Source: Schmidtea polychroa
Taxonomy: Eukaryota
Reading direction: 5' to 3'
Assembly (NCBI GenBank): GCA_044892525.1
Contig: CM097886.1
Location: forward strand, 34,410,001 to 34,474,000
DNA: 64,000 nt
Position 1 is the stretch's first letter; each line of letters starts with the position of its first letter. A program made the translations under genes and the position numbers. The notes beneath the pieces were generated by a model. That model was not told where the DNA came from and did not search any database. It worked only from the letters and a program-made list of their open reading frames with translations. Shown here piece by piece: positions 3,936-25,700 of this stretch.

Positions 3936-6900
3936 TGCTGGGGTAGTGCTCGATTGACCTCAACTCATTTACGCACCTGTCTAGGAGATGAGTGTCCATT
4001 CATTTACGCTAAGTGTGCTTACGTCAATCCGGAGCAAGACCCCGCACAACTTGTATTCCAACATAGCACCCGTGAATTACTCCACGTTGGAAATGTGCTA
4101 TGCCGGCGAGACACCAGTAAGCAGGTGAGCCCCTACCTTAGGACTACTCCTTACTGAGGCCTCGACTTCCTTTTTCTGACGGCCGATGGAAGGGCTTACG
4201 TCTGATCACTCCACCATTTCCTTCCCCACCTGACACCGAGTTGTATACAGATTGTCTAAGGCTTTTCGAACTAAAGTTTGCGCCTGGGTTGTAAAAACTA
4301 CTCTGCACCTTTATAATGGCTAATCAAACAAAACTAACAATAAGAAATGACGAAAATTCCTTTATTCTACTATCATAGTGCGTTATACAGTTAAAACTAC
4401 AGGACTAATATAAATCAAGGGAAGACGGTTTACGAGAACATATAAGTCAGAATCGTTCAATTTACTAAACATGATCGATGTAGTTGCATTGGATCGAGAT
4501 CTTTACTTTTCCCATTCTGCGTCGGCTAACAGCTCCTCCAGCTCGAAGAATTCGGAGGCATTCTCCTCCCAAGTTACACCAGCGGCGGAGATGATTCGCC
4601 CTGGGATCCCTACGGTTAAATCGATCGTTACAGGGGGATCGTTCGAAGTACTGGAGAGCTCGGCGGATAGTCCACTTTGTTTGGCGATTGCTCGTTCGCG
4701 CTGACGCTTTTTACGCTCAGCTCTGGACAACTGTCGACGCTTGGGTTTTGGAACAATCAGGGTGTTTGATAGGACGACAGAAGAAGATGCGGTCGATGGT
4801 AACCCTTTCTGGGCTCCAATGGGAGACACTACGGCTGGCCTGGGAGAGAGGTCGGCCTCTACGCATTCCCGGCAGGGCTTCTTGGCTGAAGATGACGAAT
4901 TTGAAGGAAGTTCATGATGGACGGGGAAGAGGTCGTCCGCTCCATTGATGGGTATACTCACTATCTTCCTAGTCGCTGCCGCTTGAACGTAGACCTTGTG
5001 TAGAGCCTCGGACTGTTCTTTGATAAGACTGCGTTGGGCCCTACTCTCGCTGATTAAGGCGTCGCGACAGTGCTCGCTTCGGTACAATTTCTTTTGTACC
5101 TCCTTCATTTGTACTGGACTAAACCACGTACCTTCCAGATGGTCGATCGCCTTCTTGTATCTACCGATCTGGGCCTGTAAATCCCTGATTATAGTATTTT
5201 TATCTGAGCAGGAGAAGCAGGGTTTGAGGGATGATCTCGAGTTGGGCAACATTTCTTCGGTAGCTAAAATGAAGACAGGATAATGTTGATTAAACGAAAA
5301 TTTACTACATTCACTAATCCATCAACGTGGCGGCATTCCTTATCAAGGGCCTGACCATCCCCCCATTACACCCACGGGCCAAGGACTTTACGAAGAAAGG
5401 GGACGGAAGAGTTAAAATGACTGTCAGCAAAATTCAGTTGGATCGATGTTACATCCGCAAATAACCGGTGTTTGGGCATTAGTAAATCTATCTCCCTTCC
5501 CTTTATTGCGACCACGATAATTATAGCGTCGAGTTAGGTAACTTAACAATACGAGAGTGTAGTCTACATGTGACTTCGTCATCATCTGGATAATTTGGAC
5601 AGATCAGATATGGAGGAGTAATAACTTGATTAAAGATTCGTACATCTAATCCTAATTACAATATTTAAGTTTGCTCTAATTCAGCATATTTGTGATTATA
5701 ACAAATTAGAAATCGAATGTACATTGCCCATCTGATTAGTTACACTATTAATACTCTCTACCAGTTTGATAACTATTCTGGTTATGTGAGACATCAAATG
5801 CGGACCGTCTGCTGTATGTATTATCAGTGACTGATGCGATATTCAGATTATTAATCGATGTTGGATTTACTATGTCCGGGTGATGGGAGTCGATTCTATC
5901 GTTACTGGTGATTAAATTGTGCATTCACCCTGACTGTGCAATCTACGTGAGTATTCTACCGGCTATCTCATATGTTAGCGTGAATTTATGCAGGTGTTTC
6001 TACTCGTAAGTGATTATCTAATCCTAATCATGATGTACGTGTAGTCAGATTGTGCTTGCTCGTTGTACGCATTCGTGCTCTATGTTAGTCACTGAACTTG
6101 AAATCTGTATTTCTGTTGGGATTTAATCATTTAGTGTTGATATAATCTACTGGCTAATTCCCATTGCACGTGGAATATGGAATTCTATATTATGTTGCAT
6201 TTCCCGCCTTCAGGTTCGGATATCTCACTCAGTGGATGTATTTTATCAATTAACTCAAAGAAACCTCATCTTGGTGACGTCCAACAAAGGTAATTTCCTG
6301 AAAATACTTGTCGGGTTTCTACTACCAATCATCCGGAATGGCATTATTTAATAAAAACTAAAAATCCTTTGTGGAATTTCATTTTTAATTAACCACGTCT
6401 TATGACTTTATTTTGTGCATTTAATAGGTTATGAGTCGGAGGTCTCTTACCGATTGGCTTTCAGGCTACGGTGATCAGAAATCTGGACAGAACTAACTAA
6501 TTTTTATAAGAAAATCAAATGTCCTTCGAGATGTTTTTGCATTAAATCAGGTGACTAGAAATTTTCAGTTATATGCCTACACCAATTTGTGACCTCAGAG
6601 TGAGTCTATCAATGTTCTAGTTGTTTCGTTTAAAACGGGAATTGAACGAATTTTTGGTAGCAAGACAATTTACCGCGAGATGTTAAAGCGTCGACTAATG
6701 CGAATTTACGATTTGGACTAATTCATAATGTCAAATGAACTTTTTAACGCATAGCGTTGAGGAAAGATAAGTTTTCTTAGTAGGAATTGCAGTCATCTCA
6801 GTCATTGTCTATCATGGCCACATTCATTGTTTAGAGTCTGAAACCGGTCTCACTTCACACCTGACTATTTGCCTATAATAATTTAAGTCCTTCAGCGACG

Positions 6901-7842
6901 GACCCGTGAGGAAGCCCCCACATTCCGGCCCACGTCAGCTGCGTGATTGAAGAAGTCTGTACCCACCGGCTGAGCTCCCGAAGGCTCCTCACACCATGGT
7001 ACAGGTTTCCTCAACTCCACGTTACTCAACCATAATTTTCATATAAATTCCATAAAATCGAAATCATCATGCATAGTTATCTATCATAAAAGGGTTTAAA
7101 TTTCATCACTAAAAATACTTAATTATTAATATATGAGACCAAATGGAGAGAACATTAAAATTTTATTAAAATTATGATAATAAACATTATTACTATTAAC
7201 CTCCATGAGAACATTTACTTAAATTCATAATAAGAATACATCCTTACTTTATTCTTTATCGATCTGTGATCTCGAAAGGCTGAGTCGAAAAGCTGAATTC
7301 GGTATTTGCACTGAGTTGAAAATCTAATTGTCCCTGATAGTCGCTTAGGTTGTACGTCGGTGATCGTCTGTAATGGTTGGGTGTTGATCTGTAATGGTGT
7401 TTGTTAAACAGTAAATTTTAAATTATGAGCTTACCTGTAATGGTGTTTGTTAAACAGTAATTATATTGAATTTGCTGTTTGCTTATATAGGAATTTTTTG
7501 TTTATGCGGACCAATCAAAATTGAGTACCGCTTTAACTTTTAAATTAATTTGTTTTTCTTATTTCTTTGGTTGTTTTTCCTTATTTTTCTTTATTTTAAT
7601 ATATTTTTTTTTGTTTCTTAAATTCCTCATTATTTGTTGCATTTTTCGTCATTTTATTCCTTATCTTATTACCTTATTTTAATTTTTCTATTTTTTATTT
7701 TTTGTTTTAATCTTAATATTTTACGTTATTGTTTTCTTTTGTCTCTTGATTTATTTATTTTAGCACTTTGTGGTCTTATTTTATTTGTTCGTGTCTTATC
7801 TGTCCTAAATTTGACGATTATGCTTTTCGACTCAGCCCAACA
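3936..7842 (-). repeat. 3' LTR (3,907 bp)
   Basis: Minus strand begins TGTTGGG and ends CCCCAGCA. Matches 29541-33447 except substitutions seen at 4284/29889 and 7442/33047. Confidence 0.96.
4503..5252 (-). CDS. LTR-encoded ORF, 249 aa (3' LTR copy), unknown function
   Basis: Open frame with CxxC (CFSC), coiled coil, second CxxC (CREC), basic NLS-like PKPKRR..RKKRQRER and acidic-aromatic C-terminus. Acceptor-like TTCATTTTAG 11 nt before the ATG; AATAAA at 4366-4361 followed by a GT-rich tract. Confidence 0.7.
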   Translation of the reverse strand: MLPNSRSSLKPCFSCSDKNTIIRDLQAQIGRYKKAIDHLEGTWFSPVQMKEVQKKLYRSEHCRDALISESRAQRSLIKEQSEALHKVYVQAAATRKIVSIPINGADDLFPVHHELPSNSSSSAKKPCRECVEADLSPRPAVVSPIGAQKGLPSTASSSVVLSNTLIVPKPKRRQLSRAERKKRQRERAIAKQSGLSAELSSTSNDPPVTIDLTVGIPGRIISAAGVTWEENASEFFELEELLADAEWEK

Positions 7843-8115
7843 AATCACTCGGGGACCCGATAAAATTGCGTCCCGCAATTACATACTTGAGCTATTCTTA
7901 CTTTCTCATAAAAAGATAAACACATTCATAAAAAGATAACATAGTGATTAACAAAATTATAAACATCAATAGAATTTTATTAATAAGATATAGGTCAAAT
8001 CAAGACCAAGCAGGCATCACTTATGGTGATGGTTTATATACACAGAAGTTCACACCAGTTAATGTTTTACAGTTCACACTAGATAATGTTTTAAATCAGT
8101 ACTGGCATTGTTTTA

Positions 8116-8760
8116 TTACTCTGCTGACTCTGACTGGGGTTGTTGGTACATTTTAGGCTCGATGTTGTAGTAGGCCGGACGACTGGTTGAGGGTTTGGGA
8201 GATTCTTGGTTGGTTAATCTGAGTGGACTTGTATTTTGAGTGATGTTGGAAAGTTCGACCGAATTTTTCTGGGTAGCCTTGGATTTCGGTTGTTGGCATT
8301 TTTTCTTGAATTCGAGGATTTCTAAGAAGGTTATTAGACATAATAGGCTTGTTTCGGCGATCACCACATATAGAAGGTAGTGGGTGTCGCCTTGTTCTGG
8401 GGATTTTTCGATTTTTTCAGGTTCGGAATTTTCCTGTCGTATTTGCACTTCTAGTTGATCTAGGTGATGGATTTGTTCTATCATCACCTTATTTATTTTT
8501 CTACACAGGAGGTTTCCTTGGCACATTACTCGGATATTGTCCATGTAGGTTCGGGTTGAACGGATGTTGTCTATGATTTTGCTCTTTACCATGGTATGGC
8601 ATCTCGGTTTAGGTGATTCGGATTGGGTTTTCGAGTTCTTTCTTCGGTGATCTCGGAGGCTATCTATTTGGGGGTTACTCTGTGGCTTGCTCATCAGATT
8701 GTTAGCCAGTATTATCAAGGTGATTGTCACTCCCCACCGCATTATACTGTTATACATCAA
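8116..8760 (-). CDS. Element accessory ORF, predicted type I membrane protein (about 208-214 aa)
   Basis: N-terminal hydrophobic MRWGVTITLIILANNLMS, internal TM-like YLLYVVIAETSLLCLITFLEIL, polar tail. AATAAA overlaps the stop. Confidence 0.65.
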   Translation of the reverse strand: MMYNSIMRWGVTITLIILANNLMSKPQSNPQIDSLRDHRRKNSKTQSESPKPRCHTMVKSKIIDNIRSTRTYMDNIRVMCQGNLLCRKINKVMIEQIHHLDQLEVQIRQENSEPEKIEKSPEQGDTHYLLYVVIAETSLLCLITFLEILEFKKKCQQPKSKATQKNSVELSNITQNTSPLRLTNQESPKPSTSRPAYYNIEPKMYQQPQSESAE

Positions 8761-8796
8761 ACATTTAATTTATTTACAATTGTCGACGTTCTTTTG

Positions 8797-9498
8797 TTAA
8801 TCGTCTTTCTTTTGGGGGTCGTTTTCGGTGATTCTCATTAGGATGGTCTCTGCCTTAATGACCCGATGTCTTAATTCCGGCATCATCTCTAATTGCCGAT
8901 CTTTTTCACGGGCTTCCCGTTTTAGGTGTCTTATCTCCTTTTTTAGTTTGCTTATTTCTTCTCGTTTCTTGTCAAGATTTCTTTTTAACTCGATTTTTAG
9001 GAAATCTTGTTCGTTCTCCTGTGGAGGGTTTCGTTGTTGTTGTTGTCTCTCAATTTCTTTGTATTTGCGAATCCATTTCTTCATTCCTTCACTTTCTTGT
9101 TGACTTTCTTGCAATTGTTTCTCTAGTTCCTCTATGGTTGCTTGCCGTTCTCGCGCCTCAGTCTTCCAATAATCGCTAATCACTTCGTCTGCCTTTCTAC
9201 TGGCCCTTTCTTGCCATAATTCTTCCGCAATCTTCTCCCAATTTCTTCCTCGTTTTCGTTGTTCTTGCAGCCATTCGTTTTCCCCTTCTGTTTCTCTTTT
9301 TACTTCCCCTAGCACTCTGCATTCTTTCTTTAGTATCTTTATTATTTATCGATCTTCTATGTATTTGTTTACCAGTCTCTCGTTTTCGCACTTTTCTTCT
9401 CGCAACTCTGCTTCTAGCGTTTGTGTTTCTGTTGTTTCTGTTACAATTTCTCCTTCTTCCTCGTCGCTCGTGATTTCTATCATTTCCTCGATTTTCAT
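8797..9498 (-). pseudogene. Element coiled-coil ORF interrupted by one in-frame TAA (9346-9348)
   Basis: ORFs 9346..9552 and 8797..9315 are in the same frame, separated only by TAA and 10 sense codons (IIKILKKECR). E/K/R/Q-rich throughout. Confidence 0.6.
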
Positions 9499-9673
9499 AT
9501 CTATAATATGTACAGTTAATGGTGCGCTATAGTGCGACTTATACGTATACATTTATATAAAATTTAATAGTTTGGGTTACAGTCCCTTGGATACTTTTAC
9601 AATACTTAAATTTTTTTTTTGTTTGTTTGGGATATACGTCCCGGTTTTTTGTTTTTTATCTTTTTATCCACCC

Positions 9674-10729
9674 TTATACGAAGGTTTCCTCCTGGCCTAC
9701 ATAACCTTCATCACTATCGACCGCGGGATGTAACTGTATCGCAATAGGGTCGTATGGTAGGTAATATTGGGGAATTTGAGCTCTCAACTCATTAATTTCG
9801 TCTCTTAGAGCTCGAGTGATGTTCAGCTCTTCGTCGAGCAGGTAGGTGAGGTACCTTGTCTCTTCGTCTTTCATCTCTATTTGTCTATCTAGGGCCTTGA
9901 TTTTCTCGTCGCCTTTCCATTTTTCAATTTCTATTTCCAAGTTTTTGATGTTTTCGGTGTACATTTTCCTTTCGTTTTCTAATTTTCTGTTTTTCCCAGC
10001 TAGGACCATGTTTCTTTGTTCCAGCGATCCTTGTAATCCATTAAGGTCTCTTTTCATCTCTTCTACCTGATTTACTAATTCCACAACCCGTCCTGCTTGT
10101 TGGGTTATCATCTCTTCCATTGCGGCATTCTCGTGCTCTCTTATGTCGCATTTTATTGCCAAATGTCGCTCAAACTCCATAGCCTTTGTCTGCCAGGTTT
10201 GACTTCGGGCGGCGACCTTTCTCAACCGTTTCAATTCTTCCTTTATTATTAAATTCTCCTCCCATTTACCTTGTTCGCTTTCATATCCGAGTCTCATGGG
10301 CATTTCTTTCATCTCTTTTTTCATTTCACTGTTTTGTCTTTTCCATTTTCTCGCTTCTGCCACTAAGTGCATCATTTTCCTTCCTTCTATTTGCTTTTCC
10401 GCTTCGCGCTTGGTGTTCTCATCGGTAAGTCTCTTTCTCGCTTCCTGCACTAGCTGCTTTAAGTAGTGGCTGTGCGCTTCTTGGCGGGTATTTTCTAGTG
10501 ACGCCCATTTTGATGCTCTTTTGCATGCTTCTGCTTCCGCTCTTAAGTTGTGTATTAACCATTGGTATTGACTATTCTCATCCTCTCTAGCTTCTTCGAT
10601 GTGATTTCGGGTGAGATTAGTTAGTTGGAACATTACTTTGTTCCATTTTTTGTTATGTTCTCGGGGAATTTGTGTCTTGTTGACATTGGTTGGGGCTATC
10701 GCAGTTTCGGTTATTTTCTCTTGTGTCAT
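9674..10729 (-). CDS. Element accessory ORF, 351-aa coiled-coil protein
   Basis: Long E/K/R/M-rich helical ORF with the same purine-rich strand bias as the polyprotein. TTTAG|AG immediately before the ATG. Confidence 0.75.
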   Translation of the reverse strand: MTQEKITETAIAPTNVNKTQIPREHNKKWNKVMFQLTNLTRNHIEEAREDENSQYQWLIHNLRAEAEACKRASKWASLENTRQEAHSHYLKQLVQEARKRLTDENTKREAEKQIEGRKMMHLVAEARKWKRQNSEMKKEMKEMPMRLGYESEQGKWEENLIIKEELKRLRKVAARSQTWQTKAMEFERHLAIKCDIREHENAAMEEMITQQAGRVVELVNQVEEMKRDLNGLQGSLEQRNMVLAGKNRKLENERKMYTENIKNLEIEIEKWKGDEKIKALDRQIEMKDEETRYLTYLLDEELNITRALRDEINELRAQIPQYYLPYDPIAIQLHPAVDSDEGYVGQEETFV

Positions 10730-10923
10730 CTCTAAATCATAGACATCGATTAATCTTTTTATTATGAAAAAGGAATTTATTCATTATTTACTATTTCTTT
10801 GGAAATTTTCGCATCATTTTTGGGTTTTCGTATTTAGGGTTTTTCATACTATTATTATATAATATTTTATTGGTTATATACACCGATATATACAGATTAT
10901 TATATACAACATTATTCGATGGG

Positions 10924-12312
10924 TTACTCCGTTCTACCCTTTCCTTCCCTTCGTACTGTCATTTTTATATGTATTGTGTCATTTTTCGTCATCTCTTCCA
11001 CCTTTTGCTGCAAGATGAACGTAGGTGCCCCTGATGCTGCTCCTTCTTCCTCCATAGGTCGCCGGTAACACAGCTGGGTTCCCGTTGTTTTAAAGCTTTG
11101 TTCGTGGACGCTTTGGTCGTTCATCATTGTGATATCGATTTTTGCCTGGAATGGCCATTCTATTACCTCGTCATATTCCCCTTTACATAATAGGAAAAAT
11201 ATCGAAAAATGCGTATTCAATCCGGTTCCATCTCCGTTGGGATATATCCTCATTTTCATCTTGTACCCATTTTTCCAAGAATGGAATGCAGGACTTGTTA
11301 TCCTTGTCTCTTCTCCGGTTTTTGCTTTTCGTATTCTTTCTTTTACTCCCGTTATTTTCCATATGTAGGGTGCTGTTGGTATTACTTCATTTAGATTTAT
11401 TTCCCGTATTTTCTGATGTAGTTCCTTGGCCTGATTATTACTGATTTCCATTCGGTTCATTTGCATCTTTATGTTTGCTCGGGCTTCTTCGAACGCTTCC
11501 CTTTCTTCTAGTAGTTCTTTGACTAACACTTTCAACGATGCTATCTCTATCTCCATTTGTTTTACTTTCTCCTCGCTTTCTTGTAACGCAGTCGACCACA
11601 TTTCTGCGTGGGTTGAAGCATTTTCTACTAAATGATGTGGTAACTCCCCTCGGTGTAGTAGTTTCTGACAACCCCATTTACCTAGTACACATGTCATTCT
11701 TTTCTTTTCACATTCCCTTAGATGCTGTGCCACCTTTATTATTTCCCCTTGGTTACATCCGTTTGGGCATTCCCCACTGAACTCTGCACATACTCTCTCC
11801 TCTTGGATATTGTGATGTTTGAGGGTGAGATTTTTCCACGTATCTATTTCTCCACAATGTTCACATCTTTCCAATCTCTCTTCACACTGCCTTTGATGCT
11901 CTTTTTCTTCGCTTGCTCGAATGGTTTTATGGCACCTTTCACACTGGCCAATTCTGTACATACATTCTCCCATATGTTGCACTACTTTCCATATTATTCC
12001 TTTCCATTCGCATGGGGTATTTTTACATCCCAGATTGGTGTTTAACATGTCTTTCACTGCGGCTTTATCCTCGTTAGTGTCTTCTAAACTCGATATTAGT
12101 GTCTCTTTACACACCGGGCACCACTGTGGTCTATTCTTTATTGCTTCACTGATACATTCTTTACATACTCTGCATCCACATTGGGTTTGGTGAGGTTCCT
12201 TTAACAACTTTTCACAGATTCCGCACATAACATGTTTGTGTGTTCGGATCGTTGTAGATTTTCTGACTTGTTCGACAATCTCTCTGAACTCTTCTCTTTG
12301 TCGTTTATCCAT
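10924..12312 (-). CDS. TRAF-like protein (RING - TRAF zinc fingers - coiled coil - MATH), intronless, element-borne
   Basis: RING CGICEKLLKEPHQTQCGCRVCKEC..CPVC; C/H zinc fingers; MATH motifs YIWKI, SPAF, GYKMKMRIYPNGDG, HFSIFFLLCKGEYDEVIEWPF. Confidence 0.93.
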   Translation of the reverse strand: MDKRQREEFREIVEQVRKSTTIRTHKHVMCGICEKLLKEPHQTQCGCRVCKECISEAIKNRPQWCPVCKETLISSLEDTNEDKAAVKDMLNTNLGCKNTPCEWKGIIWKVVQHMGECMYRIGQCERCHKTIRASEEKEHQRQCEERLERCEHCGEIDTWKNLTLKHHNIQEERVCAEFSGECPNGCNQGEIIKVAQHLRECEKKRMTCVLGKWGCQKLLHRGELPHHLVENASTHAEMWSTALQESEEKVKQMEIEIASLKVLVKELLEEREAFEEARANIKMQMNRMEISNNQAKELHQKIREINLNEVIPTAPYIWKITGVKERIRKAKTGEETRITSPAFHSWKNGYKMKMRIYPNGDGTGLNTHFSIFFLLCKGEYDEVIEWPFQAKIDITMMNDQSVHEQSFKTTGTQLCYRRPMEEEGAASGAPTFILQQKVEEMTKNDTIHIKMTVRREGKGRTE

Positions 12313-12397
12313 TCTATAATTATATATACATATAGTTCTTATCGATACAGGTTCGATATTTTATTTACAATTATTTACATTTTAAGCTAGGTTTGGT

Positions 12398-12781
12398 TTA
12401 GGGTTCGGAAGAGTCGGCTTCGTGTCCGCTCTCCTCTCTATTCATTAGCCATTCCGACCAGTCTTCTATTTCCGTCTGTTCTGCTTCCTCCATCATTCTG
12501 TCTAGCTCGATTTCCTGTCTACGGCTATATTGGGTTATCCTCTCTATCTCTCTTTGCATTTGTTCGATTTTCAACCTCTGGTCTTCAATTATCTTCAAAT
12601 AACTAAATCCTCTATTCATACTCTCGATTAGGTTTCTGTGCATCGTCAATCCTTGTTCTTGCAAATTGGACACTAATTGTGCTAATACGGCACATTGTTG
12701 CTTCCATAATTCTTCAGTTACTGTATTGTGGTTCATTTCGTTATTTCCTTGATCCATTCTTAATTTATATACACTTTTCAA
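12398..12781 (-). CDS. Element accessory ORF, about 120-aa coiled-coil/acidic protein (likely ATG at 12757)
   Basis: Open frame MDQGNNEM..EQMQREIERITQ..; ORF-track start is a TTG. Confidence 0.6.
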   Translation of the reverse strand: MKSVYKLRMDQGNNEMNHNTVTEELWKQQCAVLAQLVSNLQEQGLTMHRNLIESMNRGFSYLKIIEDQRLKIEQMQREIERITQYSRRQEIELDRMMEEAEQTEIEDWSEWLMNREESGHEADSSEP

Positions 12782-12917
12782 CTCTTATTTAAATTTAATT
12801 TTATTTTATGATTCCCGTTATTGTATAATATTGATACCGCGCTTATATAAAGATATAGTACTGTTATATACATAAGATATACTTACTTTTTACAATTATA
12901 TACAGTCATATTCCTTT

Positions 12918-13712
12918 CTATATACGTGAGTTTGGAGGGCGCTGAGCGTTCCAGGCCTCCACCCACTGTTCTTGTTTGATATCACTTGGTCGTTTCACTC
13001 GATGTTGGAAATTTCTGATTCGGGTCATCTCTAGTTCTCCGCGATGTCGTTTATCTTTAATTATTTTTATTGTTCCCCCCGTTATGATTAGGAAGGCCCC
13101 TGTTATTATTATCCCACTGATCCACATCATCTGCTTCACGCTTATACTCTCTGGTTTTTCCTTGTTTGTTAATGTTACTATTGCTTCTGTACTTTTCTCG
13201 TTCCCTCTTTTGCCATTCCCTTTCATCATCTCTCGTATTCTTGCTATTTCCTCGTTCATACCCTCCTTTGCCATCTTTTGTATTTTTTCCATCTCTTCCT
13301 CCGAAACATAGTTGTCCTGAGCTTCCTCGCCGGTTTTCTTGTGCTTTCCTCCTTCGTCCTTTTCGTCGTGGTTTTTCCTTTTCTTTCCTCTTTTCCCCGG
13401 GTATCGTCGGCATTCTCTTTTTGATTCGTTCCTCCAGATACAAACCGTGTATTCTTTCGGCGGCTGCTGCTGCGTCACATATTGATGGCATCTCTCACCT
13501 GGTCCTAATCTTGAAATACAGACTTTGTGCTCTTTTCTAGGTTGGAGCTGCGTTATTATTACTTCACCACCTTTTCCTAGGTGTACCTCTTTTCCTTTAA
13601 CGTTCGTTATTCTCTTCCCGTCTCGATTTCGGTATGCTTCTTGTATTCTTACTTCTGTTATTGGTTCTGTGTCCTCATTTATCAGTACTAGTTTCTGATA
13701 CGCTCTAGACAT
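12918..13712 (-). CDS. Element accessory ORF, 264 aa, basic/charged with C-terminal TM segment
   Basis: ATG overlaps the polyprotein stop (ATGTCTAG). TM-like MMWISGIIITGAFLIITGGTIKII. Confidence 0.7.
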   Translation of the reverse strand: MSRAYQKLVLINEDTEPITEVRIQEAYRNRDGKRITNVKGKEVHLGKGGEVIITQLQPRKEHKVCISRLGPGERCHQYVTQQQPPKEYTVCIWRNESKRECRRYPGKRGKKRKNHDEKDEGGKHKKTGEEAQDNYVSEEEMEKIQKMAKEGMNEEIARIREMMKGNGKRGNEKSTEAIVTLTNKEKPESISVKQMMWISGIIITGAFLIITGGTIKIIKDKRHRGELEMTRIRNFQHRVKRPSDIKQEQWVEAWNAQRPPNSRI

Positions 13713-16700
13713 GCATCTTCCTAGTATGCACCTTTCCTTTAAGTCCCATTCTTCCTTTAAATCCCAACTGCTCTTGTGCTTGCTTTTTCTTTTCTTGTTT
13801 TAGTTCATCCTCTTTGCCATCTTGATTCTCCGCTTCTTTGGTTTCTTTTATCGTTCTCGTCCCTCCATGAGCTGTTACTAACTCTATCATGGTAAGCATA
13901 ATTATCATTAATATCATATTTGTCTCTATTTCTTTGTTAGTGAAAGGTAGGCATACCCTCTGTTTTCCATTATTCGGTTTTTCCTCCTCTTTGGTCTTGG
14001 TTCCCGGGCTGTTTCCCTCTCTTTTCGTATCCAACTCCTTGTTTTCCGGTTTATCCTCTTCCGGTTCTCTTTTCCCTTTATCCTCTTTTCGGCCTTTTCC
14101 GTCATTGTCATCGTGTTTATCTCCCCCGCTGTCGTTTAAAATGTCGTCCTCGACATTTATATCGTCCAATAATCTGCGATATGCTGTTAGCACTCTGTTT
14201 TTTGCTAATTTTGCTTCGAATTCAAATTCTTTTCTACCCGTTGCAGCATGTCTCTTTCTATTCCATTCTTTAACTAACTCTCTCAATTGAATACGACGAT
14301 GTTTCCCAATTCGTTGTTGCTCGCTCTTATTTTGCGTGAATTTGAGGTCTTCTCTGTTTAGTACTATTAAAATAATTTTTGGTGTCCCCCCTTTAGTTAA
14401 TGTATTCTTTACCATCGCGTTTTCTCCGTTTTCGTAGAATTCGTTTATATTTATCGCATATTTATTACTTTGTGGTATTCTCCATGTTACTAATAATTTC
14501 ATTGCTTCTAGATTTTTCCGTACCGTATTCCATTGGAATTGAGATGTGTTTTTGCACATATTTTCAATTTCTTCCTTTGTCGCATTTTTGCAAATAAATC
14601 TGATCATTTCCAAGTTTGGCTGTATGGTTGCCCAGTCCAATGTGGAGTTCCCTTCGTTTGATTTTTCGTCTAGTCTCGATCCTGATTGATGTAGGATGTG
14701 GAGTGTTTTTGGGTGTATTTTCGTTATAGCTGCATACATCATGGCGGTTTCGCCTTGTTCATTTTTCGTGTTGGTTTCCTCGCCCATCTCCCTAAGGATT
14801 CTCATGATCGTTATTGCTCTATTCTCTTTTGCAGATAGTATTGCTTGTTGTAGAGGTGTTCTGGAATCCTTTGTCGTCATCGCAAATGCTCGAGGCAAGA
14901 AGGTTTTGATTTTCTCGATATCTAAACCCGTGGTTTGATCTCTTGCGTATGTGTGTACGGCTTTTATTATTTTTGACAATATTATTTCGTCGGACAGCTC
15001 TAGCATTTCCTCGAAGAATACTTCTTTTGCTTTGCATATTATTGCCTCTTGATCTATACTCATTGATTTGGTTTCGATGACGTTGTTTGTGACCGTCGAC
15101 TTTGGTTCCCTTGATTTCCCATACCTTATTTTCGTTTTCTTTCCGTTTGGATTATTGATTCGTTCCTCTGCTGTAAGTATTTGGATAATATCCAGGTAAT
15201 TCTCGTGGAGGTTATTCATTGTGTCCATCATATATAACACACTTACCGTTTCCCAATATTTATTTCGTACTTGGTTAGTAAATTGGAATATTGATTTTTC
15301 GAATGTGTCGATTCGCTTTTTTGCTAACTGTTCATCTTTATGATTTGTGAATTTTATCCCTCGTTCTAGTAATTGATTCGGAATTTCGAATAAATGATGT
15401 CCTTTCATAGCTTCTCTCATCAGCGTGTTCTCTCCTCTCGTGAACGCTTCGTTTACGTTGATCATATAATCATTTTTAATTGGATTTCTCCATGTAATTA
15501 ATATTCCGGTAATTGTTGTCAGTTTTTCTTTGGTCGCTGTTAGTAATCCACCATACATGTTTCCGACTTCTTGATTGTCCTCATATGATAGTAACTCCAT
15601 CAACGATGTGAACGCTTCGGTACTTTTCCCTTCGATAGCATGATGTAGTGCGTTTTTCCGCTCGCGATCTTGTGTAGTTATTTTTGATCCAGTATCAAGT
15701 AATGCGGTTATGATGTCTTTTGTTTTGCCTCTGTTTGCTGCTATCATTAATGGTGTGTAACCTTGGGTATTTTCTTGTTCTGTTGATCGCTTGCAGTCGT
15801 GAAATGCTTCTATTGTTTCTAGTATTTGCTCGTTGTTACCTACTTTCATGAGTTTGTGTAATGGTGTGTCTCCGTAATGATCTGTTATTGTAAATAATAT
15901 TGGCCATTGGCTTTTGACTACTCGCAATAATGGGTGTGTTCTCTCTCTGTTTGCATAATTTTCGATCATCGTCAATAATCCTCCTAATATTTCGAAATCT
16001 AATCGATCTTTTGCCCATCCGGGTAATTTTATCTTTACCTCTCGTACGATTTTTTCGGCTTCCGATGGTTGTATGCCCAATCGTCCAGTGATCGGTTCTG
16101 CGAGTTGTTGCATCATGTTCATTCTGTAGGTTTGCGAACGTGTGGTTAATGTACGGCCTTCTGGATGACTGGTGGCTGTTTTCGGAATTGGTTTGCATCG
16201 TGCCACGTTTACGTATATTGGCCTGGTGAATGGATTATTTATCAATTTCACTCTAACGTTGGTTTCGCCTACAAATAGGATCTCATATGGCCCTTTTCCG
16301 TTCCGTTGTAATTTTCTTGTGGTTCCGGGAATTAATTCTGGGGTCTCGATCATCACCCAATCACCTGTTTGAAACGTATGTTGCTTCACGTTTTTCTTTC
16401 GATCGTGTAAATCTTTATAACTTTCCTGGTAGAACTTGATATTTAATCCCGCAGTTTCCCAAATTTCTTGCATTCTTTCCTTGAATTTCGTAACATAATC
16501 GTCGATCTCCATATACTGCGATATCGGTGGTTGGTATTCCAGGTCCATTGGCATGTTACATTCTCTTCCGTACATTAATTTGAATGGGCTCATTTTCGTT
16601 GATGCGTGAATCGACATTCTGTATGCCATAAGACATAGGTTTATATATTCGTCCCAATCTCGTTGGTGACGGTCGACGTAGTTTGATAACATTTGTATAA

Positions 16701-19700
16701 GTGTTCCATTAAATCTTTCCGTCATCCCATTGGTTTGAGGATGATACGGTGATGTTCTCAATTTTGCGATTTTGAAGTAATTTGTTACTTCGCTCATTAT
16801 CTCACTCATAAAATTAGTTCCCTGATCGGTTAAGATTTGTTTTGGTGTTCCATATCGGCAACATATTTCTTCTACCAAAATTTTTGCGATTGTTTTAGCT
16901 TTTTGGTCTGGCATCGCGAATGCTTCTGGAAATTTCGTGAGAAAGTCTGTAATCACTAAAATATAAACGTTTCCTCTATCCGATTCCGGTAATGGACCAA
17001 CTACGTCCATTGATATCATTGTCATTGGTTCTATTGGTACTGGCATTGGCGTTAAAGGTGCTTTCCATTTCGATCCAGTATTCTTCCTGGTCGCACAAGT
17101 TAGACAATTTTTTACCCATTCGGTTACATCTTCAGTTAACGTAGGCCAAAAATATTTCTGTTTCATTCTTGCTAACGTCTTTTTCGATGACATATGTCCT
17201 CCCAATCTCCCATCGTGATATTGCGTTAGTAACTCTTTTCGTCGGTTTTCCGGTATACACATTAATCGTTTTTCCCCATCCATTATCAGCAACCAATCTT
17301 TCTCTATAATATATCGGTGTCGGTGTTTATCCATATGTTCTTTTAATTTTTGGTCTTTCGCATATACATCCGTCTTTCCGGTTTTTACATAATCGATAAT
17401 TTGTTTTAATTCCGCGTCCTCTTGTTGGTCCTTTCGCAATTGACAGAAATCCAAATCTTCCGCTACTATTAAGCATATGCGTTGCATTTCTGAATCCACC
17501 AAATCTGGAAAAATAAATCTTGACATACAATCGGCGTTGGCATTTGCTCTTCCTGCTTTGAATTTTATAAATGGGGAGTATTCTTGCAATTGCATGGCCC
17601 ATCTCATCAGTCTACTGGACGCTTCTTTATGTTGCCCTAACCACACTAATGGTTGATGATCTGTGGTTATACATATCTCATGTCCCCATAACAAATATCG
17701 AAAATGTTTGATTGCCTGTATTATAGCCAATGCTTCTCGTTCTGTTACTGAATAGTTCTTCTCGTGCTTTTTGAATGTTCGACTGTAGTATCCAATTACT
17801 CTTTCTTTACCTTCGTCGTCTAATTGTCCCAGAATCGCGCCTGCCGCGTACCCGCTTGCATCCGTTGCCAATAGAAATGGCTTCTTGAAATCTGGGTGTA
17901 CCAGTATTGGTGCTTCGATTAGTTTGTCTCTCAGCGTTTCGAACGCCTGTTGTTGTTCTTTTTCCCAAATGAACGAAATGTCTTTCTTTACTAATTCCTG
18001 GATTGGTTTTGCAATTCCTGCATAATTTTTGATAAATTTGCGATAGTATCCGCATAATCCTAGAAATTCCTGAACTTGGGTGACAGTTTTCGGTGCTGGA
18101 CATGTTTTTATTTTCTCAATGTTTCTTGGATCTGGCTCCTTTCCTTTAGCTGACACTATGTGTCCCAGAAACGTGACTTTTTCCTTTGCCCAATCGCATT
18201 TTGAGGGTTTGAGCTTGAGTTTCCATTGTCTTAATCGAATAAATACATTTCGGATATCTTCCAGATGTTGTTCAAATGTCGCTGAATAGATTAGTAAATC
18301 ATCAATATATACCATACATTGTTTGATTCCGTGAGTGACAAAGTTCATACACCTTTGAAATGATGCTGGTGCGTTAGTCAGTCCGAATGGCATTTTCCTG
18401 AACTGATATAGATCTCGTCCCAACGTGAAGGCGGTCTTCTCTTTGTCCTCATCCTTGACTTTAATCTGCCAGTATCCACTTTTTAGGTCTAAAGAAGTAA
18501 AATATGCTGTCCCTTGCAACATGAGTAACATTTCATTAATGTCTGGCAATGGATAGGTATCTCTCTTGGTTACTGCGTTTAATTTTCGATAATCGATACA
18601 GAATCGTTGGGTGCCATCTTTCTTTTTCACCATGACCACTGGGAATTGCCAAGGTGAGCAACTCGGTTCGATTACTTTTGCGTCTAGCATCTTTTGTACT
18701 TCTGCTTCGGCTATTTCTTTTTGCATTTCTGCTAGCTTGTATGGTCTTAATGCAATTGGAGTTTCATCTATGAGGGGTATTGCATGTAGGGTAACATCGC
18801 ATGTACCCAAATCTAAATCTGAGATGGCGAATATATCTTTATATTCTACCAACAATCGGTGCAATTTTTTCTTTTCATCATTCGTCAACAACATACTATC
18901 TATTGTCCATAATTCATCATCTTTGATCATCTCGTTGGTCACTTTCGGTAATTCTATGTCCATCAATGGGGTCAATCTTCCCAATTTTTCGTTCTCGTAA
19001 ATGATTTTGTCTTCCTCTTCGAAATTCGTGATGTTGAGCGGTATCACTCCTTCTTGGTTTATTGTGATTATTTCTCTTGCGAGGGGTAATTCTCGTCGCT
19101 TTTCGAATGATTTGCTTGGTTCAAAGATAACTTCTCCTTCCATACCCGTATCCACCTTTATCTGACAAATCATCTGTGATTTTGCTGGTACCACAATTTT
19201 CTCTGGACATCTAATTATGGCATTCATTTTGCATATTCTGCCTGTTTTGTCTTTTAAACACATGGTTGTTAAATCGATCACCACTTCTTTTAATAATTCC
19301 GGCATCAGGTCCGTTCCGATTATGCATGGTACGCTAAGTTTTGGTATTACTGCCAAATACGTTTCAATTTCGTTGTCCTGGTATCTCAATGTAGTCCACC
19401 ATCTTCCGACCACGTCTACTGTTTCTTTACTACATGCTATGATGTGAATTGTTGTTGATTCGATATCTTTCCAGTGCTTACTGGGGATTTGATTAATCGC
19501 TATCACTGATACATTAGCTCCTGTGTCTATCATAGCATTGGTTTCTTTACCATTGATTTGAATCATGACTGTTACTGCTGGACCTCCAGGTAAACTCATC
19601 GCTGCTATTGTTCTTACGTCATCTGCTTGATCTACACTTTTGGTACGTCGTGTTGGCATATAATGCATACCGGGTTGACTCGGTAATTGCGGATACATGT

Positions 19701-22700
19701 TTTGTGTCATGGTCAAAGCTGCTTGCGGTCCCACGATATCGGGCGATATATAGCTTCCATTGGCGATCCAGGTATTTGTCTTTTCCTTTTCCCAATATGG
19801 TGCCGTTTCCACTGGTTTTTCGTTTGGGTTTCTGTTTGGATATAGACATTTATCGTTCCCGTTATCATCGTCGTCACTATCGCTGTTAGATGATTGGCTT
19901 CTAAATCGGTCCAAGAATTTTGGCTTATTCTTTTTCAATTGTCGTCTTGTTGCTTCGTCGTACATTACTTTCCGGAATCGTCTGCCTACTTCCTCGTCGG
20001 TTCCTTTAATCTTTGTTAGTATTTTGATCAATCGCTTTATCCGATGGATGTCTTTTGAGTGACCATGTAATACCATGGTTTTTGCTAAAAATGGTAAAAA
20101 GCCTACTATCATTTTCCAGTTGACTTTCTTTTCCCGCTTGTATATATCAAAACAAGCTAACATTTGTGTTAGTATTACTCTGACTATCTGAATTATGAGT
20201 ATGATCCCTAATATCCCGGCCATCATTTGTCCAAAAACTAAGAATCTTCCCCACATTGCTTTCATCATGTTTGACGTAGCTTGTTGAAAATGGTCTGGCG
20301 ATAATAGCAGTTCGTAATTCGGGCCTGATTGATAATTTGTTCCCCCAGTTATTGTAACCATATTTGACAAAATGGATTCTCGTCTGGCTGGGAAGAGTAC
20401 GTTAAGTCGTGCTGTTTCTAGATCTTCTGGGGAATACATTCCACCGTTTGACACGTCTATAGGTTTGAAATCCAGCTCTGTGGCGAGTTCTATTAATCCA
20501 AATTTCTTGGGCTCCTCGGATATGGTTTTTCCCGGTAACATCATCCATTTCCCATCGGGTCTTTCATACAAAGGTCCGTATGCATTAGAACAGTTAAAGA
20601 GATTTGGGTAGAAACCCACTGGATTCATAATTCTCGTGACTGGTTGGACGAATCGATTTTGTCCTTTATAACGGATTTCTAATTCATTTGCACATCTCTT
20701 TTCGGGTAGTATGGATTTTTCTGGCATTCGTGCATACGTCTTGGTACACTGGTATGTGTACATTACTTCTCCTACCATTCTACCAAAATGTCCGTCTGGT
20801 AGTGGGAGTGATGGCATCGTGTTATCTGGGTGCGTTATCGCAATAGCTAGCTTTGTTTTCAGTATTTCTTTATTCAATGAACAATCGTTTTGTATCAGAT
20901 CGTAATATACTTTTTGTAAGGTCGTTTGCCCGCGATGAAATAGAAAATCCATTTTATTATTTGCATATAAGTATAGTTTTACGTCCTCCGTTGCTATCTT
21001 TCCCACTGCTCTATCGATTATTTGTCTCGACATATAGATACCTGCGTAATTGGTTTTATATACTATACTGTCACATTTGGTGGTTTCTTTCTCTTTGATA
21101 AATCTCATACCTAGATCTGGATCGTCTGTGATTAATGCTGTTGGTGTCTTCTGCGTTGAAAGTCTCTTTTCTCTGGGAGATGGTGGCATTGGTTTTCCAT
21201 TTCGCATTCTCACTCTGTCGTTTCCATCCTCGTCGTTCTCGTTCTCATAAATTTCTCCTTTTACTTCATTGAACAAAGCACTTTTTAACAGTTGGAGTCG
21301 GCATTTTTGGGTATTAGCTTCATAGATTATAGTTGATACTCCTGTCCTGCATACGTTTTCTGTAGCTCTACATGCTGGGTTGGTCTTCATTTGATAATTA
21401 TTTGCGTCAAATTGCGCTTCGTATTCTTTTAATTCAACCGTATAAGACTCGATCACTACTACTCCCGATATTACCTCGCCTCGGATCGTATACGTACCTC
21501 CGTTACATGACCCATCTGATGATTTTACTTTTCCGGATACGTAAACACTTTCGGTTTTAATCATTCCAGTTTGTCCGTGAATCGTCACTCCGTTATGCAT
21601 TTTTAACGCTCCGGTTCTAAATAGCTCTTTACAGTCCTCTCGTTGTATTGATACGATTTCTTTATCCAGACCGGGTAGTATAAGAGTCGAATACGAATAT
21701 TGTCCACAGTAATATGCGAGTACCTTTTTTGATACTACGCATTCCCTTGCTTGCGTTCTGATGAAATCTGATTCTTGATATACATGGTAGGTAACTTTTG
21801 TTCTTACTATGTCTAATTTGTTGGGTGATGCTTGTCTGCATTCTTCTATGTCTCTCAATGAGTATTTATCCCTCATTATCATATTATCACAATCGTAGAT
21901 GGTAAAACCTGTTGCTCCACTTGTGCACAACATCCATATCATCATAGTCATCATTAACGAATTTATCGATGCTTTTCGGCTTGCTGGGTCTTTCATGGGT
22001 AGTTCCCATTCTAGTTCATTCAGCAACTTCTTCAATCTAACTTGCATCGACCTTTCTTGCTCATTTTTTCGTGGTGCTTGTATAAGTCTTTTCCATCCTC
22101 CGGCACGAATAATGTGTGGTTCAATAGTGTTTTCTATGACTGAAACTGTCATTTCCACGTGATTTGCAAACTGTTTATTTGGTATTTTCCTCGCAGCTAG
22201 TCCCATCAAATTATACATCAAATACGTGATTACCACTAGATGATGTTCGTCATCATTTGCATTTGTCGTGAGCTGTTCAATCACTCTCTTCGTTTCATCC
22301 CAATCCGTTTTGGTGGTTTTCGTTTTCTCTTTGATTAACTTTGGGATTGTCCCCGAAACGATGTGCCATAATTGTCTAGCTTCCGTACTGGCTACTTTCC
22401 GTTGCCACAAACGTCTAAGTTGTGGGTTTGTTATTATTAACATATCTTTGATCAATTCTCGTATCCATTTTTCTCCTCTTTCGATCGTTGGTTGGGCTTC
22501 CTTTAGATCCCATACTATTTTATCCAATTTTTCTAATCGAACTTGCCCTTGTTCTTGCTTTAATTGTTCCTTGGTTTTGAACTCAGACTTTTCTCCTTGT
22601 TTCTTAGGTCTTCCTTTTGCCCGTTTTTCCATCATCGTTCCGGCTTCTCTGGTATTTTCGTAATTCGGATTTCTTTCGTTATCCGTTCTGGGTAATGAGC

Positions 22701-25700
22701 TATCGTTATTTCTTAGCCACTCATTCCATTCATCTATTATTTTATCGGTTTGACCTTCTGATGTTACTTTCGTTGGTTCTCTTTGCTTCTGGAATTGTTC
22801 ATCCGTTTCGGTTTCCGTAGTGTTGTCGATGATTTCTTTGATGTTTAGTTTCGTTGGTTGTTGATAACTCGTTGATGGCTGGTTATTAGTCCATAGTTCA
22901 GCTCCTGTCGGCCATCTCACTAATAGCGGTGATCTTTCTCCTGGTTCATCATCGCTGTCTTCGAGGATAATCTCTTCGACTTCTTCAGTTTCATTGGATT
23001 TACTTGGTGCTTTGTTCGGACTTGGAGTACTCAAGCTGCCTTTTGTTGGTTTATTAATTTTGCTTTTCCTTTTCAACGGTTTTCCCAACGTTTCCGCCAT
23101 TGTTAACACATTCGTCTCTTCCAATCTCATGGGTGTTATTCCGACGTCTGCATTATCGTCTAGTGATTTTCCGAATAGTTGCAGATGGAATGGAGTTTCA
23201 TATGCTAATTTCTTTTTTAATTCTCTAATCTTTGTTGTTGGATGCACCTCTAGTTCCTTGATGCTCTTGTCCGGATACTTGATTCGGATGTGATACCTCT
23301 CCTGAGTGTCTTGTGCCCATTCCTGATTTCTCCATTTTCGAATAATTTGTTCTAGCTGTTCTGGATACAATTCATTATATTGCCGGTATTCCTCTATTGC
23401 CTTTGCCGTTCCTCTCAGATTGTGGATGTTCTCTGATGTCTTTAAGATGATGTTAGCCAACGCTACTACTTGGCGTTTTTGATTTTTCGCTCCCATTGCT
23501 AAGATATCGCCTAATTGTTTATATCTTTCTTTCTCTTCTCGTTCTCTTGCTTCCGTCGCTTCCTCGCCGTCCATATCAGCATATTCACGTTCCTTTTTCC
23601 TCATTGCATGAATATGTCTCGCTTCATTTTCGCTTTCTGATGTGACATCCGTCTCGCCTTCGTCATCTGATGTCTGTTCCCTTGCTTCCTCTTCATATTC
23701 TGGAGGTTCCTCTTCTTCTTCCTCCGATTCACTTTCTGTTTCACCAATGTCTGTTTCTACGAAGATTCCTTTCCGGATTTCCCATTCCTTATTTTCTGTA
23801 TTCCACACTCTTTCCCATGGGGTTCGTCTGCAGGATCTGGTACTTAGTTTTGTGATTTTTCCTTGTAATTCCTTTTCTTTTAACCATTGTTGGTGGATTT
23901 CGATTATTTCTGTAGATTTTTGATATAACGTTTTCATCCGGTCTCGTATTTCTTTTTGATATGTTACATCTCTTGTTCGAAATTCATCCATTGGTACTAT
24001 CCTGATTATCTGATGATTGTCCCACATACCCATTTCGCTTAACGAGGTGTCGTCTTCCGCTCGTAATATTATTTTATCGTACATCATGACTACATCATCT
24101 ACCATACCATCACCACTTTCGCTACGTACCTTTTCCGTTATCTCTTGGTTTATCTTTGATACCAAGTCATCCACTGTACTCTGATTGCTCATTTTTATTC
24201 GTCGTTTTTCTTCGTTCGGTAACCATATGGTTATTTCCAACCTCTGTGGCTGGGTTTCTTTTAACCTTCCATATTTGTGGATCAAATTTATGGTTCTCCA
24301 ATCACTCATTCGGAGCATTTCTGTATCTCGCAACCGGCTCATTAGTTCGTACATGGCTGGGGCTCGCCTGGTGATGAGTAAATCCCAGTTGTCTTCTACT
24401 TGTTCTTGAATTTGTTTGATCAGCTTATCCAGGTTTCGTCTCAGAGTACATTGTTTTATTTGTTCTAATTTCAATTTGATATTAAAATCATATTCTGCCT
24501 TGGCATCTTTAGCCCAATCGTAAAGGTTGGCTGGTTGTTTTTCTTTATGCAACTTCAGTATTTGCGTTTCTCCTGGCCATATTAGTGCATCTACTAAGTG
24601 CATATCTGGTTTGATCTGTTCTCCTTGGTATTGATACAGATATTCTTTCTTTCTCGAACTTCCCAAATGTTCTCGTATCCAATCGAAAAGTTCGTCGGTG
24701 ACTGTACTTTTGATCCACATTCTTTCAAGTCCTCTGCTCGTTCCGATTTTTATTACATACCGCGTGGTATCGGCCTGCTTCATTTTTTCCATATACTTTT
24801 TTATAATTGATTTTTCCTCGTTTGGTATTAGATCTTTCTCGTTTCTTTCCAATTTCATCACTTTTTGTACGAATCGTCTGAATGGTATTATATCGATGAA
24901 CTCTTGATTCCTCACTACTACTGGGAGTATTTCAGCTACTTGTTTTATCGCTTCCTCCCTCTCTTTTCTCAACTTTATTTCGATATCCTCGTCTTCACTT
25001 TCGCTGGTTATCTCGCTTTCGCCTTCTTCCTCTTTGATTTCCCCTTTTGGAGGTTCGCTTATTTCATTTAGCTGTAGTATTTCTCCACCCAAACTACTTA
25101 CATAGTCTTCTTCTTCGTCTGACGATGCTACATCTTTTGTCCTTTTCATCATATTGATTTGCAAATTTCTTATCCTTGGTACTCTCTTTAGTTTCTTTCT
25201 TTCGAATATCGTTGTTTCTTCTGATTCTAATTCTTGTAGCATTTGGTGGTTTAGTTGACTGGTTTGTTCCTTGCTCTTGTTATTTTCGTCTTCTGTCTCA
25301 GTTTTCGCTTTATTATGTTCTTTTTCGATTTTATCTTTTATCTTTTTCCAGAATATTTTCTGAATTCTCTGGTTTCCTTTTAAAATCGTGGTTGAATTCT
25401 CTGTTTTCATTTCCGTTGTTGTTTCTTTTACCTTTTCTGGTTCCGTCCTGGGTACTACCCTTGGGTTTTTCCCGTAATTGTAGCAATACTGGCTCTTCAT
25501 GTCTTTTACTAACTTCATCATATTTATTCGCAATGGTTGTTCTTGTCGTTGTTGGTTGCGTTCTTGTTTTATCCTCTCTTCCTCGGCCTGTAGTCTTTGC
25601 CATTCTTGTACATGTTGATGCACTTCATAATTGTTGAGATTTTCGGTACTCCTCATCATACGTATGTTCTGGGTTTGTTGTGGTGCTGGTTCTTGTCTTG

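Follow-up and report, generated by a model that had tools for sequence, protein, structure and literature searches.

A predicted common splice leader and stop-adjacent Pumilio-type motifs in a Burro-type giant LTR element of Schmidtea polychroa

Planarian genomes contain giant long terminal repeat (LTR) elements of the Burro type by the thousands. One Burro accessory protein reportedly protects stem cells, and Burro levels rise in piwi-knockdown animals (PMC8532177). The described gypsy-like elements Burro and GYPSM1 are about 30 kb long, occur in many copies and encode one huge gag-containing polyprotein, with a mononegavirus-like fusion glycoprotein in frame between gag and pol and with ankyrin repeats, along with TRAF/MATH, RING and coiled-coil (Smc-like) modules and accessory open reading frames (ORFs) (PMC6431247). 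The accessible part of this description is silent on the expression of the accessory ORFs, on splice signals and on PUF sites (PMC6431247), and the route of translation of the six to eight separate Burro ORFs is left open in the available descriptions. Here, we analyze a window of 64,000 nucleotides of the Schmidtea polychroa genome (assembly GCA_044892525.1, contig CM097886.1, positions 34,410,001 to 34,474,000) that carries a Burro-type element on its minus strand, with a cassette of five accessory ORFs: one of 119 aa, one TRAF-like, two coiled-coil-like and one with a hydrophobic N-terminus. The candidate splice acceptors in front of these ORFs and a conserved donor in the LTR make it likely that the accessory proteins are expressed by cis-splicing of one LTR leader, yielding nested mRNAs with a shared 3' end rather than operons resolved by a spliced leader (SL).

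Both the kind of element and the class of mechanism are known, the latter from complex retroviruses (PMC7828637). Foamy viruses, the chief parallel, combine one LTR promoter and a major donor near the 5' end with several acceptors, suboptimal sites and subgenomic mRNAs (PMC7828637). The element described here differs from them in being a Ty3/Gypsy element with eight predicted acceptors across 24 kb, the best of which belongs to gag-pol, and in having extra polyadenylation (poly(A)) signals outside the LTR, while an internal promoter is unsupported. The adenovirus major late unit similarly has a common leader and many alternative 3' splice sites under few poly(A) sites, but it belongs to a DNA virus and uses a tripartite leader of 200 nt, whereas the Burro-type element has a single predicted 24-nt exon in the LTR. 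In animal operons resolved by SLs, such as those of the C. elegans SL1/SL2 type and those of flatworms, same-strand genes likewise have an acceptor ahead of the ATG and less than 300 nt between them (PMC12582326); unlike these, the Burro-type cassette has no convincing poly(A) site per cistron, and a cis donor is available. Finally, the RSE, a stop-adjacent stability element, resembles the signal reported below in that a host protein is bound right after a stop whose 3' untranslated region (UTR) is long (PMC5580461), but the RSE is an element of 150-400 nt that is bound by PTBP1 and found after gag alone, whereas in the Burro-type element an 8-nt predicted PUF consensus follows most internal stops. 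Such stop-adjacent Pumilio-type sites in an element are a new signal: literature searches returned nothing on Burro splicing or on PUF sites in LTR elements, although a study of the Burro1 B-IAP (Lee et al., Dev Cell 2026, cited in PMC13465017) may describe transcripts.

The initial annotation of this DNA proposed that nearly every accessory ORF has an AG acceptor just before its ATG and an AATAAA after its stop. The ORFs concerned are as follows.

30108..30857, minus strand: ORF of 249 aa carried by the LTR, with a stretch of basic residues and no Pfam match; dN/dS 0.06, dS saturated
28813..29298, minus strand: RING-finger ORF, 161 aa (PF13920, E 4e-12); dN/dS 0.14
12398..12757, minus strand: accessory ORF, 119 aa, of no known family; dN/dS 0.06
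10924..12312, minus strand: TRAF-like ORF of 462 aa with RING, zinc fingers and MATH (PF21355, E 2e-26); dN/dS 0.14
9674..10729, minus strand: coiled-coil-like ORF, 351 aa; dN/dS 0.08
8797..9498, minus strand: second coiled-coil-like ORF, 233 codons
8116..8742, minus strand: last accessory ORF, with an N-terminus and one further stretch that are hydrophobic (by eye)

All quoted AG and ATG motifs are found at the minus-strand coordinates given by the annotation, and the pattern is real: the ATG has an AG no more than 4 nt away in all five cassette ORFs (P 2e-4 against dinucleotide-shuffled spacers) and, with the RING ORF included, in six of six (P 5e-5, dinucleotide shuffles), well above chance in the shuffled-spacer comparison. 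The count drops to 5/6 (P 1e-3) when the last ORF is started at 8757 rather than 8742. As a background, an AG this close was found at 36% of the element's 530 other ATGs and at the ATG of 6 out of 21 further long ORFs that have AT-rich DNA upstream; the cassette spacers themselves measure 54-194 nt and are 71-79% AT. The distance from AG to ATG ranges from 0 to 11 nt, and a Kozak or otherwise fixed start-codon context was rejected as the reason for the AG because of this variable gap. In the 20 copies sampled (the 3' cassette and the 5' part being taken as separate pieces), the proposed acceptor AG is retained at 100/100 copy-sites, and the base at -3 alternates solely between C and T at three acceptor sites. 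Since the copies are 93-96% alike, this retention is modest evidence for splicing.

Stronger evidence that the AGs may be acceptors comes from a second family, B, found through its BIR domain, which has the same cassette order as the family of the window (A) and an extra IAP gene. The two families are 79% identical in pol and 25-31% identical in the five accessory proteins, and their cassettes share only three short nucleotide matches, the spacers being otherwise unalignable. Counted at one locus per spacer from the 34 stretches fetched, an AG precedes the ATG by 0-3 nt in 7/7 family B ORFs (P 5e-4).

A donor suited to these acceptors is predicted in the LTR, where the following features are recognized together with the acceptors of the three upstream ORFs.

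33088..33120, minus strand: predicted LTR promoter, with an ATTGG box at 33120-33116 and TATATAA at 33094-33088, in a layout common to four LTR subfamilies
33040..33063, minus strand: predicted common leader exon of about 24 nt without ATG, its start site placed by TATA spacing
33034..33042, minus strand: predicted major splice donor CAG/GTAAGC, the intron beginning at 33039
32994..33039, minus strand: 46-nt GT-AG mini-intron, the tail of which copies the leader
30869..30888, minus strand: predicted acceptor of the LTR ORF, 11 nt before the ATG at 30857
29301..29320, minus strand: predicted acceptor of the RING ORF, with YAG 2 nt before the ATG in 16/16 copies
27365..27384, minus strand: predicted gag acceptor, the best-scoring in the element (rank 1 of 2043 AG), present in 17/17 loci with gag

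The order of ATTGG, TATATAA, short leader and AG/GT is kept in the four LTR subfamilies, in which the letters of the leader differ. The AG/GT lies 55-57 nt after the TATA in 18 of 20 loci (GTAAG in 12, GTAAA in 3 and GTAC in 3), the two other stretches having no promoter, and in family B a TATA is followed 67-80 nt on by GTRAG in 6/8 loci, in three variants. Scores were taken from a host matrix built on myosin introns, of which 62 were mapped by spliced alignment and 57 used, 5 being dropped as duplicate gene copies; these introns are AT-rich, 41-59 nt long for the bulk, with 43/57 not exceeding 60 nt. The window donor has a higher score than any of the 57 host donors, and no other AG/GTRAG lies outside coding DNA. 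Its position conserved across subfamilies, its score and the analogue in family B indicate that a cis donor is available and selected. On the side of the acceptors, all eight proposed sites rank 1-61 among 2043 sense-strand AGs, at host percentiles 28-98. The three 5' ones (LTR ORF, RING, gag) are strong, and their YAG and pyrimidine-rich tract are kept across subfamilies that are 70-85% alike; those of the cassette are weaker, and those of family B fall at host percentiles 4-61. In the window, 607 ATG-free bases separate the gag acceptor from the gag ATG (27365-26758), and at least 607 follow this acceptor in 16/17 copies; a part of the 607-nt interval (115 codons upstream) is free of stops in the gag frame.

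The sequence thus contains a strong donor just after the LTR promoter and an acceptor before each downstream ORF, and the first AUG after each acceptor opens the ORF. The spacers contain 1-9 ATGs and the LTR intron 51, which puts the ORFs beyond the reach of simple scanning from the cap. These are under purifying selection, with dN/dS (pooled against the window copy) of 0.06-0.14 for four cassette ORFs and of 0.26 for the last one, for which two copies only were used; given such low values, the cassette ORFs are translated now or were until recently. As for the mini-intron, it is collapsed to one repeat copy in 5/19 3' LTRs (loci L013-L032). After its repeat, a second GT is present in two subfamilies and absent from that of the window and one other, in which removal of the mini-intron would use up the donor.

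The strongest signal in the spacers, missed by the initial annotation, is the motif TGTAHATA just after the stops.

12759..12917, minus strand: spacer 1, with TGTATATA at 12904 (13 nt after the stop), 12872 and 12773; candidate acceptor AAG ending at 12759
12314..12397, minus strand: spacer 2, with TGTAAATA at 12379 (18 nt after the stop) and 12369 and TGTATATA at 12330; candidate acceptor YAG ending at 12314
10732..10923, minus strand: spacer 3, with TGTATATA at 10908 (15 nt after the stop), 10894 and 10882; candidate acceptor TAG ending at 10732
9501..9673, minus strand: spacer 4, with an A-rich tract after the stop and TGTACATA at 9514; candidate acceptor YAG ending at 9501
8747..8796, minus strand: spacer 5, with TGTAAATA at 8778 (18 nt after the stop); candidate acceptor YAG ending at 8747

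TGTAHATA occurs 12 times in the spacers of family A (0.78 expected) and 7 times in those of family B (0.67 expected), an excess seen in 0/1000 shuffles. It is absent from the 13.8 kb of polyprotein coding DNA, the opposite strand of the spacers has 0 (A) and 1 (B), and all 12 sense-strand sites of the element fall in the 3' cassette. The first motif begins 13-18 nt after the stop in 9/13 cassette trailers; nine of the eleven internal stops have a stop-adjacent motif, the remaining two trailers begin with A-rich tracts, and ORFs with their own poly(A) signal have no motif near the stop. Its position does not change from copy to copy and is kept (at 22 nt) in a variant of spacer 5 that has diverged; within the motif it is position 5 that varies, and neighbours with a single mismatch are less common. 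In the trailers of host TRAF genes, many of them close paralogues, the motif is found at the stop-adjacent place in 0/30 and within 200 nt in 1/30. The consensus UGUAHAUA on the sense strand, its 3' UTR position and the free position 5 agree with a Pumilio response element. A host PUF gene has canonical recognition residues in all eight repeats (SRFIQ, NYVIQ, CRVIQ, NHVVQ, CRVIQ, NYVIQ, SNVVE and NYVIQ), which we take to match the PUM code. Motif, position and host code together make binding of the stop-adjacent sites by the host PUF protein probable; on the other side of the balance, positions of the motif core do vary among copies (9/77, against a background of 22%). Two other readings of the motif were rejected: that of a CFIm site, given that planarian poly(A) sites lack UGUA (PMC5068929) and the full octamer is enriched, and that of a forkhead site, given that TGTATATA occurs as often as TGTAAATA and that the motif is tied to strand and stop.

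The second half of the annotated pattern, an AATAAA after each stop, did not hold: the five cassette spacers contain 6 against 5.9 expected, the spacer between the two coiled-coil-like ORFs has none, the count is at chance in both families, and AATAAA positions vary among copies (7/28) like other spacer DNA (118/537). In planarian poly(A) sites, the hexamer precedes cleavage by 10-30 nt, the flanks are U-rich and UGUA is missing (PMC5068929). Convincing poly(A) signals follow only three ORFs of the element.

29966..29971, minus strand: AATAAA with a U-rich downstream element after the LTR ORF, 130-136 nt past the stop in 16/16 copies
28689..28694, minus strand: AATAAA with a GU/U-rich downstream element after the RING ORF, 102-119 nt past the stop in 16/16 copies
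7976..7981, minus strand: AATAAA with a U-rich downstream element (T 0.58 downstream), the predicted shared 3' end of the cassette

The last of these sits 108-119 nt before the LTR in 19/19 copies with the LTR start, and the T content after AATAAA is 0.46-0.58 at the three terminal sites and 0.16-0.32 at the internal ones. Contigs of four probable RNA runs, which are not on record as RNA, were compared with positions 3936-14500 (X1, 494 records; X6, 120; X7, 1; X8, 0); uncovered parts count as no evidence, and contigs cannot show transcript starts. They cover cassette ORFs and bridge 8644-8864 (two contigs of X1) and 10822-10982 (X6), passing two internal AATAAA and one acceptor unspliced, as would be expected of nested mRNAs or genomic RNA; efficient cleavage in every spacer is hard to reconcile with this. 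The variant letters of X1 fit none of the sampled copies well.

Several observations weigh against cis-splicing of a common leader. Invariance alone is weak, as the finding that 0/10 AG positions vary, compared with 118/537 spacer positions, comes from copies 93-96% alike, and families A and B are homologous and hence not fully independent. The acceptor ending at 12759 is AAG in 20/20 copies, the last ORF retains an in-frame ATG upstream of its acceptor (at 8757, in 19/20 copies), three acceptors of the cassette score low (host percentile 28-30), two of family B are weaker still (4 and 7), and a better-scoring AG lies upstream in two spacers (12861 and 10849). In 7/11 internal spacers the AG is preceded at 44-55 nt by an AATAAA, several times as part of TGTAAATAAA, which could mean some internal cleavage, although this interval was chosen afterwards and partly overlaps TGTAAATA. 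No junction of leader and acceptor was seen, 0/9 contig joints in 3936-14500 beginning at the donor; neither the leader nor an SL was found among the 13 of 191 contig loose ends examined, and processed leader-ATG copies in the genome numbered 0 for two leader variants, the window's own and that of subfamily D not being searched.

The annotation left open whether each cistron matures by cis-splicing to one LTR leader or, as in animal operons, by SL trans-splicing. The first arm finds good support in the sequence comparisons, with the conserved donor, the host-like acceptors and the C/T-only variation at -3; the second, in which a polycistronic RNA would be cleaved and polyadenylated in each spacer and a host SL trans-spliced to the next AG, is poorly supported, and we regard it as improbable. 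Planarians do trans-splice (PMC10899757), flatworm SL acceptors are often shared with cis-splicing and operon spacers there stay below 300 nt (PMC12582326), acceptors alone cannot separate cis from trans, and the AATAAA 44-55 nt before the AG in 7/11 spacers would suit this model. However, AATAAA is no more frequent than chance in either family and has no U-rich downstream element at internal sites, after cleavage 10-30 nt past the hexamer (PMC5068929) a mere 15-35 nt or so would remain ahead of the AG, the probable-RNA contigs cross two spacers, and a conserved cis donor exists. Moreover, flatworm SLs end in an AUG (PMC12582326), which would be out of frame at 6/6 sites of the window family, and the overall frame fit of 4/13 is that of chance. 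Given the sharing of cis and trans sites in flatworms (PMC12582326), SL trans-splicing may still be a minor route on the same acceptors.

An internal promoter for each accessory ORF, with TGTATATAA as the TATA box and the AG as an initiator-like site, has a precedent in the internal promoter of foamy viruses (PMC7828637) and in the TATATAA of 4/6 upstream spacers. We consider it still less probable, as the positions of TATATAA are scattered from -12 to -177, two spacers have none, the motif varies to TGTACATA and TGTAAATA and follows the upstream stop and not the downstream start, and the C/T-only variation at -3 is left unexplained. Very unlikely, in our judgment, is termination-reinitiation on unspliced RNA aided by the stop-adjacent motif: the short spacers, the fixed distance of the motif from stops and the unspliced contigs across spacers would fit it, but each cassette spacer has 1-7 decoy ATGs, and reinitiation requires neither a host-like YAG before every ATG nor an LTR donor. 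An equally slight chance is given to the AGs being unused relics of captured host exons or accidents of AT-rich DNA, which would agree with the lack of a junction among the probable-RNA contigs and with the A tracts after two stops, as these could be poly(A) relics of captured mRNAs; against it, the AGs are kept in two families with otherwise unalignable spacers, and ORFs under strong purifying selection (dN/dS 0.06-0.26) require a translation route.

Under cis-splicing of the common leader, transcription would begin near 33063, and the donor at 33040 would be joined alternatively to 30869, 29301, 27365 (gag-pol), 12759, 12314, 10732, 9501 or 8747, making each ORF the first AUG of its mRNA. 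Three poly(A) groups are predicted, with gag-pol and cassette mRNAs ending together near 7960 or in the 3' LTR; with this shared 3' end, all ORFs but the last would carry long 3' UTRs. The full-length RNA would have to escape the splice and poly(A) signals, for which weak acceptors would help. The Pumilio-type motifs after the stops would likely recruit the host PUF protein, which, bound right beside the ribosome at termination, would determine how stable the cassette mRNAs are or how well they are translated. Repression is the textbook role of PUF proteins; shielding of the mRNAs from nonsense-mediated decay is a bolder option. The most extensive version, a Burro late programme resembling that of adenovirus, would comprise the 24-nt leader, eight acceptors including that of gag-pol, three poly(A) groups and nearly every internal stop tagged by a Pumilio site (or, where that is missing, by an A tract for PABP), which would license mRNAs with long 3' UTRs against nonsense-mediated decay and tie accessory output to the Pumilio level of stem cells; as a whole it is speculative, and we hold it to be doubtful. 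The model predicts exact junctions and 3' ends. If true, it would be the most elaborate splicing programme in any Ty3/Gypsy element to our knowledge, the stop-adjacent Pumilio sites would represent the use of a host stem-cell regulator by a mobile element, and they would offer a natural test of whether stop-adjacent PUF proteins repress or protect mRNA.

The element itself has the following structure.

3936..33447, minus strand: Burro-type giant Ty3/Gypsy LTR element, 29.5 kb, with TG...CA ends and a 4-bp target duplication AAGG
29541..33447, minus strand: 5' LTR, 3907 nt, with 2 mismatches to the 3' LTR
3936..7842, minus strand: 3' LTR
12918..26757, minus strand: polyprotein gag-env (fusion glycoprotein)-protease (PR)-reverse transcriptase (RT)-RNase H (RH)-integrase (IN)-ankyrin, in Pfam order

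Its size of about 30 kb, LTRs of 3.9 kb and many copies agree with the Burro type, as do the polyprotein, in which Pfam recognizes a gag with CCHC knuckles and, in frame ahead of PR-RT-RH-IN, an env related to mononegavirus fusion glycoproteins, followed by ankyrin repeats at the end, and the MATH/TRAF and RING modules (Pfam). It differs from Burro and GYPSM1 in that the TRAF is kept as a separate 3' ORF and no BIR match is found: none of the ten proteins of the window element scanned with Pfam has a BIR domain, which is present in the sister family B, so that the element is of the Burro type yet not Burro1 itself. The type of element, the AT-rich introns of 41-59 nt and the presence of four large chromosomes would fit a dugesiid planarian host. 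BCL2-like, ubiquitin-like and dUTPase-like motifs gave no Pfam match at E 0.05, no profile-profile search being made. The family is abundant in the genome, with 431 first-look candidates, of which 40/40 scored ones reached at least 95%. The two LTR mismatches are 33047 versus 7442 and 29889 versus 4284; one of them falls within the predicted leader of the 5' LTR, the 3' LTR having there the version of the intron-tail repeat. Near-identical internal regions (93-97%; loci L013-L052) are combined with no fewer than four types of LTR that are just 70-85% alike, the points of exchange lying close to the last two cassette ORFs, and such mosaics point to frequent recombination or LTR exchange.

The ORF starting at 13712, which had been taken for an accessory gene, is the tail of the polyprotein, with which it is continuous in 19/20 other copies; in the window copy the frame is broken near 13705-13712, so that the 264-aa tail misleadingly looks like a separate ORF. 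An in-frame stop at codon 51 interrupts the ORF at 9498 in the window copy, but this ORF is open in 18/20 others. For the 119-aa protein, no homologues of near length were found. A large host TRAF/MATH family (L191-L220) is clustered on contig C2, and four of its intronless full-length members have no AG within 4 nt of the first in-frame ATG.

In family B, the IAP ORF lies between the TRAF and the coiled-coil ORF (L148:8221-9420; L156:1995-2060) and is directly followed by an A run of about 20 nt, possibly a captured mRNA tail, and, as in Burro1, a MATH domain lies inside the polyprotein frame of 4791 aa. A search for further families with an env profile returned an element with 1-kb LTRs and no 3' cassette, together with a broken third type; the 20 stretches from this search were excluded from the cassette counts, and their ORFs were kept in the background ORF set. 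The former element (L083-L093; 1-kb LTRs, 3334-aa frame) is smaller and abundant, with a fusion glycoprotein 36% identical and no accessory cassette. An unrelated LTR-like piece on the reverse strand of L094 (8390-9541) has two ORFs, the first preceded by TTGTAG/A ATG and the second ending at TGTAAATA, and is possibly a third family with the same signals.

Minor features of the window include a 74-nt tandem repeat in the 5' UTR of the element (28072-28257), the unit occurring 2.5 times here and as many as about 6 times in other copies of the element. Outside the element, an intronless AT-rich ORF of 490 aa with Cys-rich stretches and no Pfam match occupies 36701-38173 on the plus strand, and a pair of 42-nt inverted repeats, 98% complementary and 281 nt apart (44342-44706), is likely a miniature inverted-repeat transposable element (MITE).

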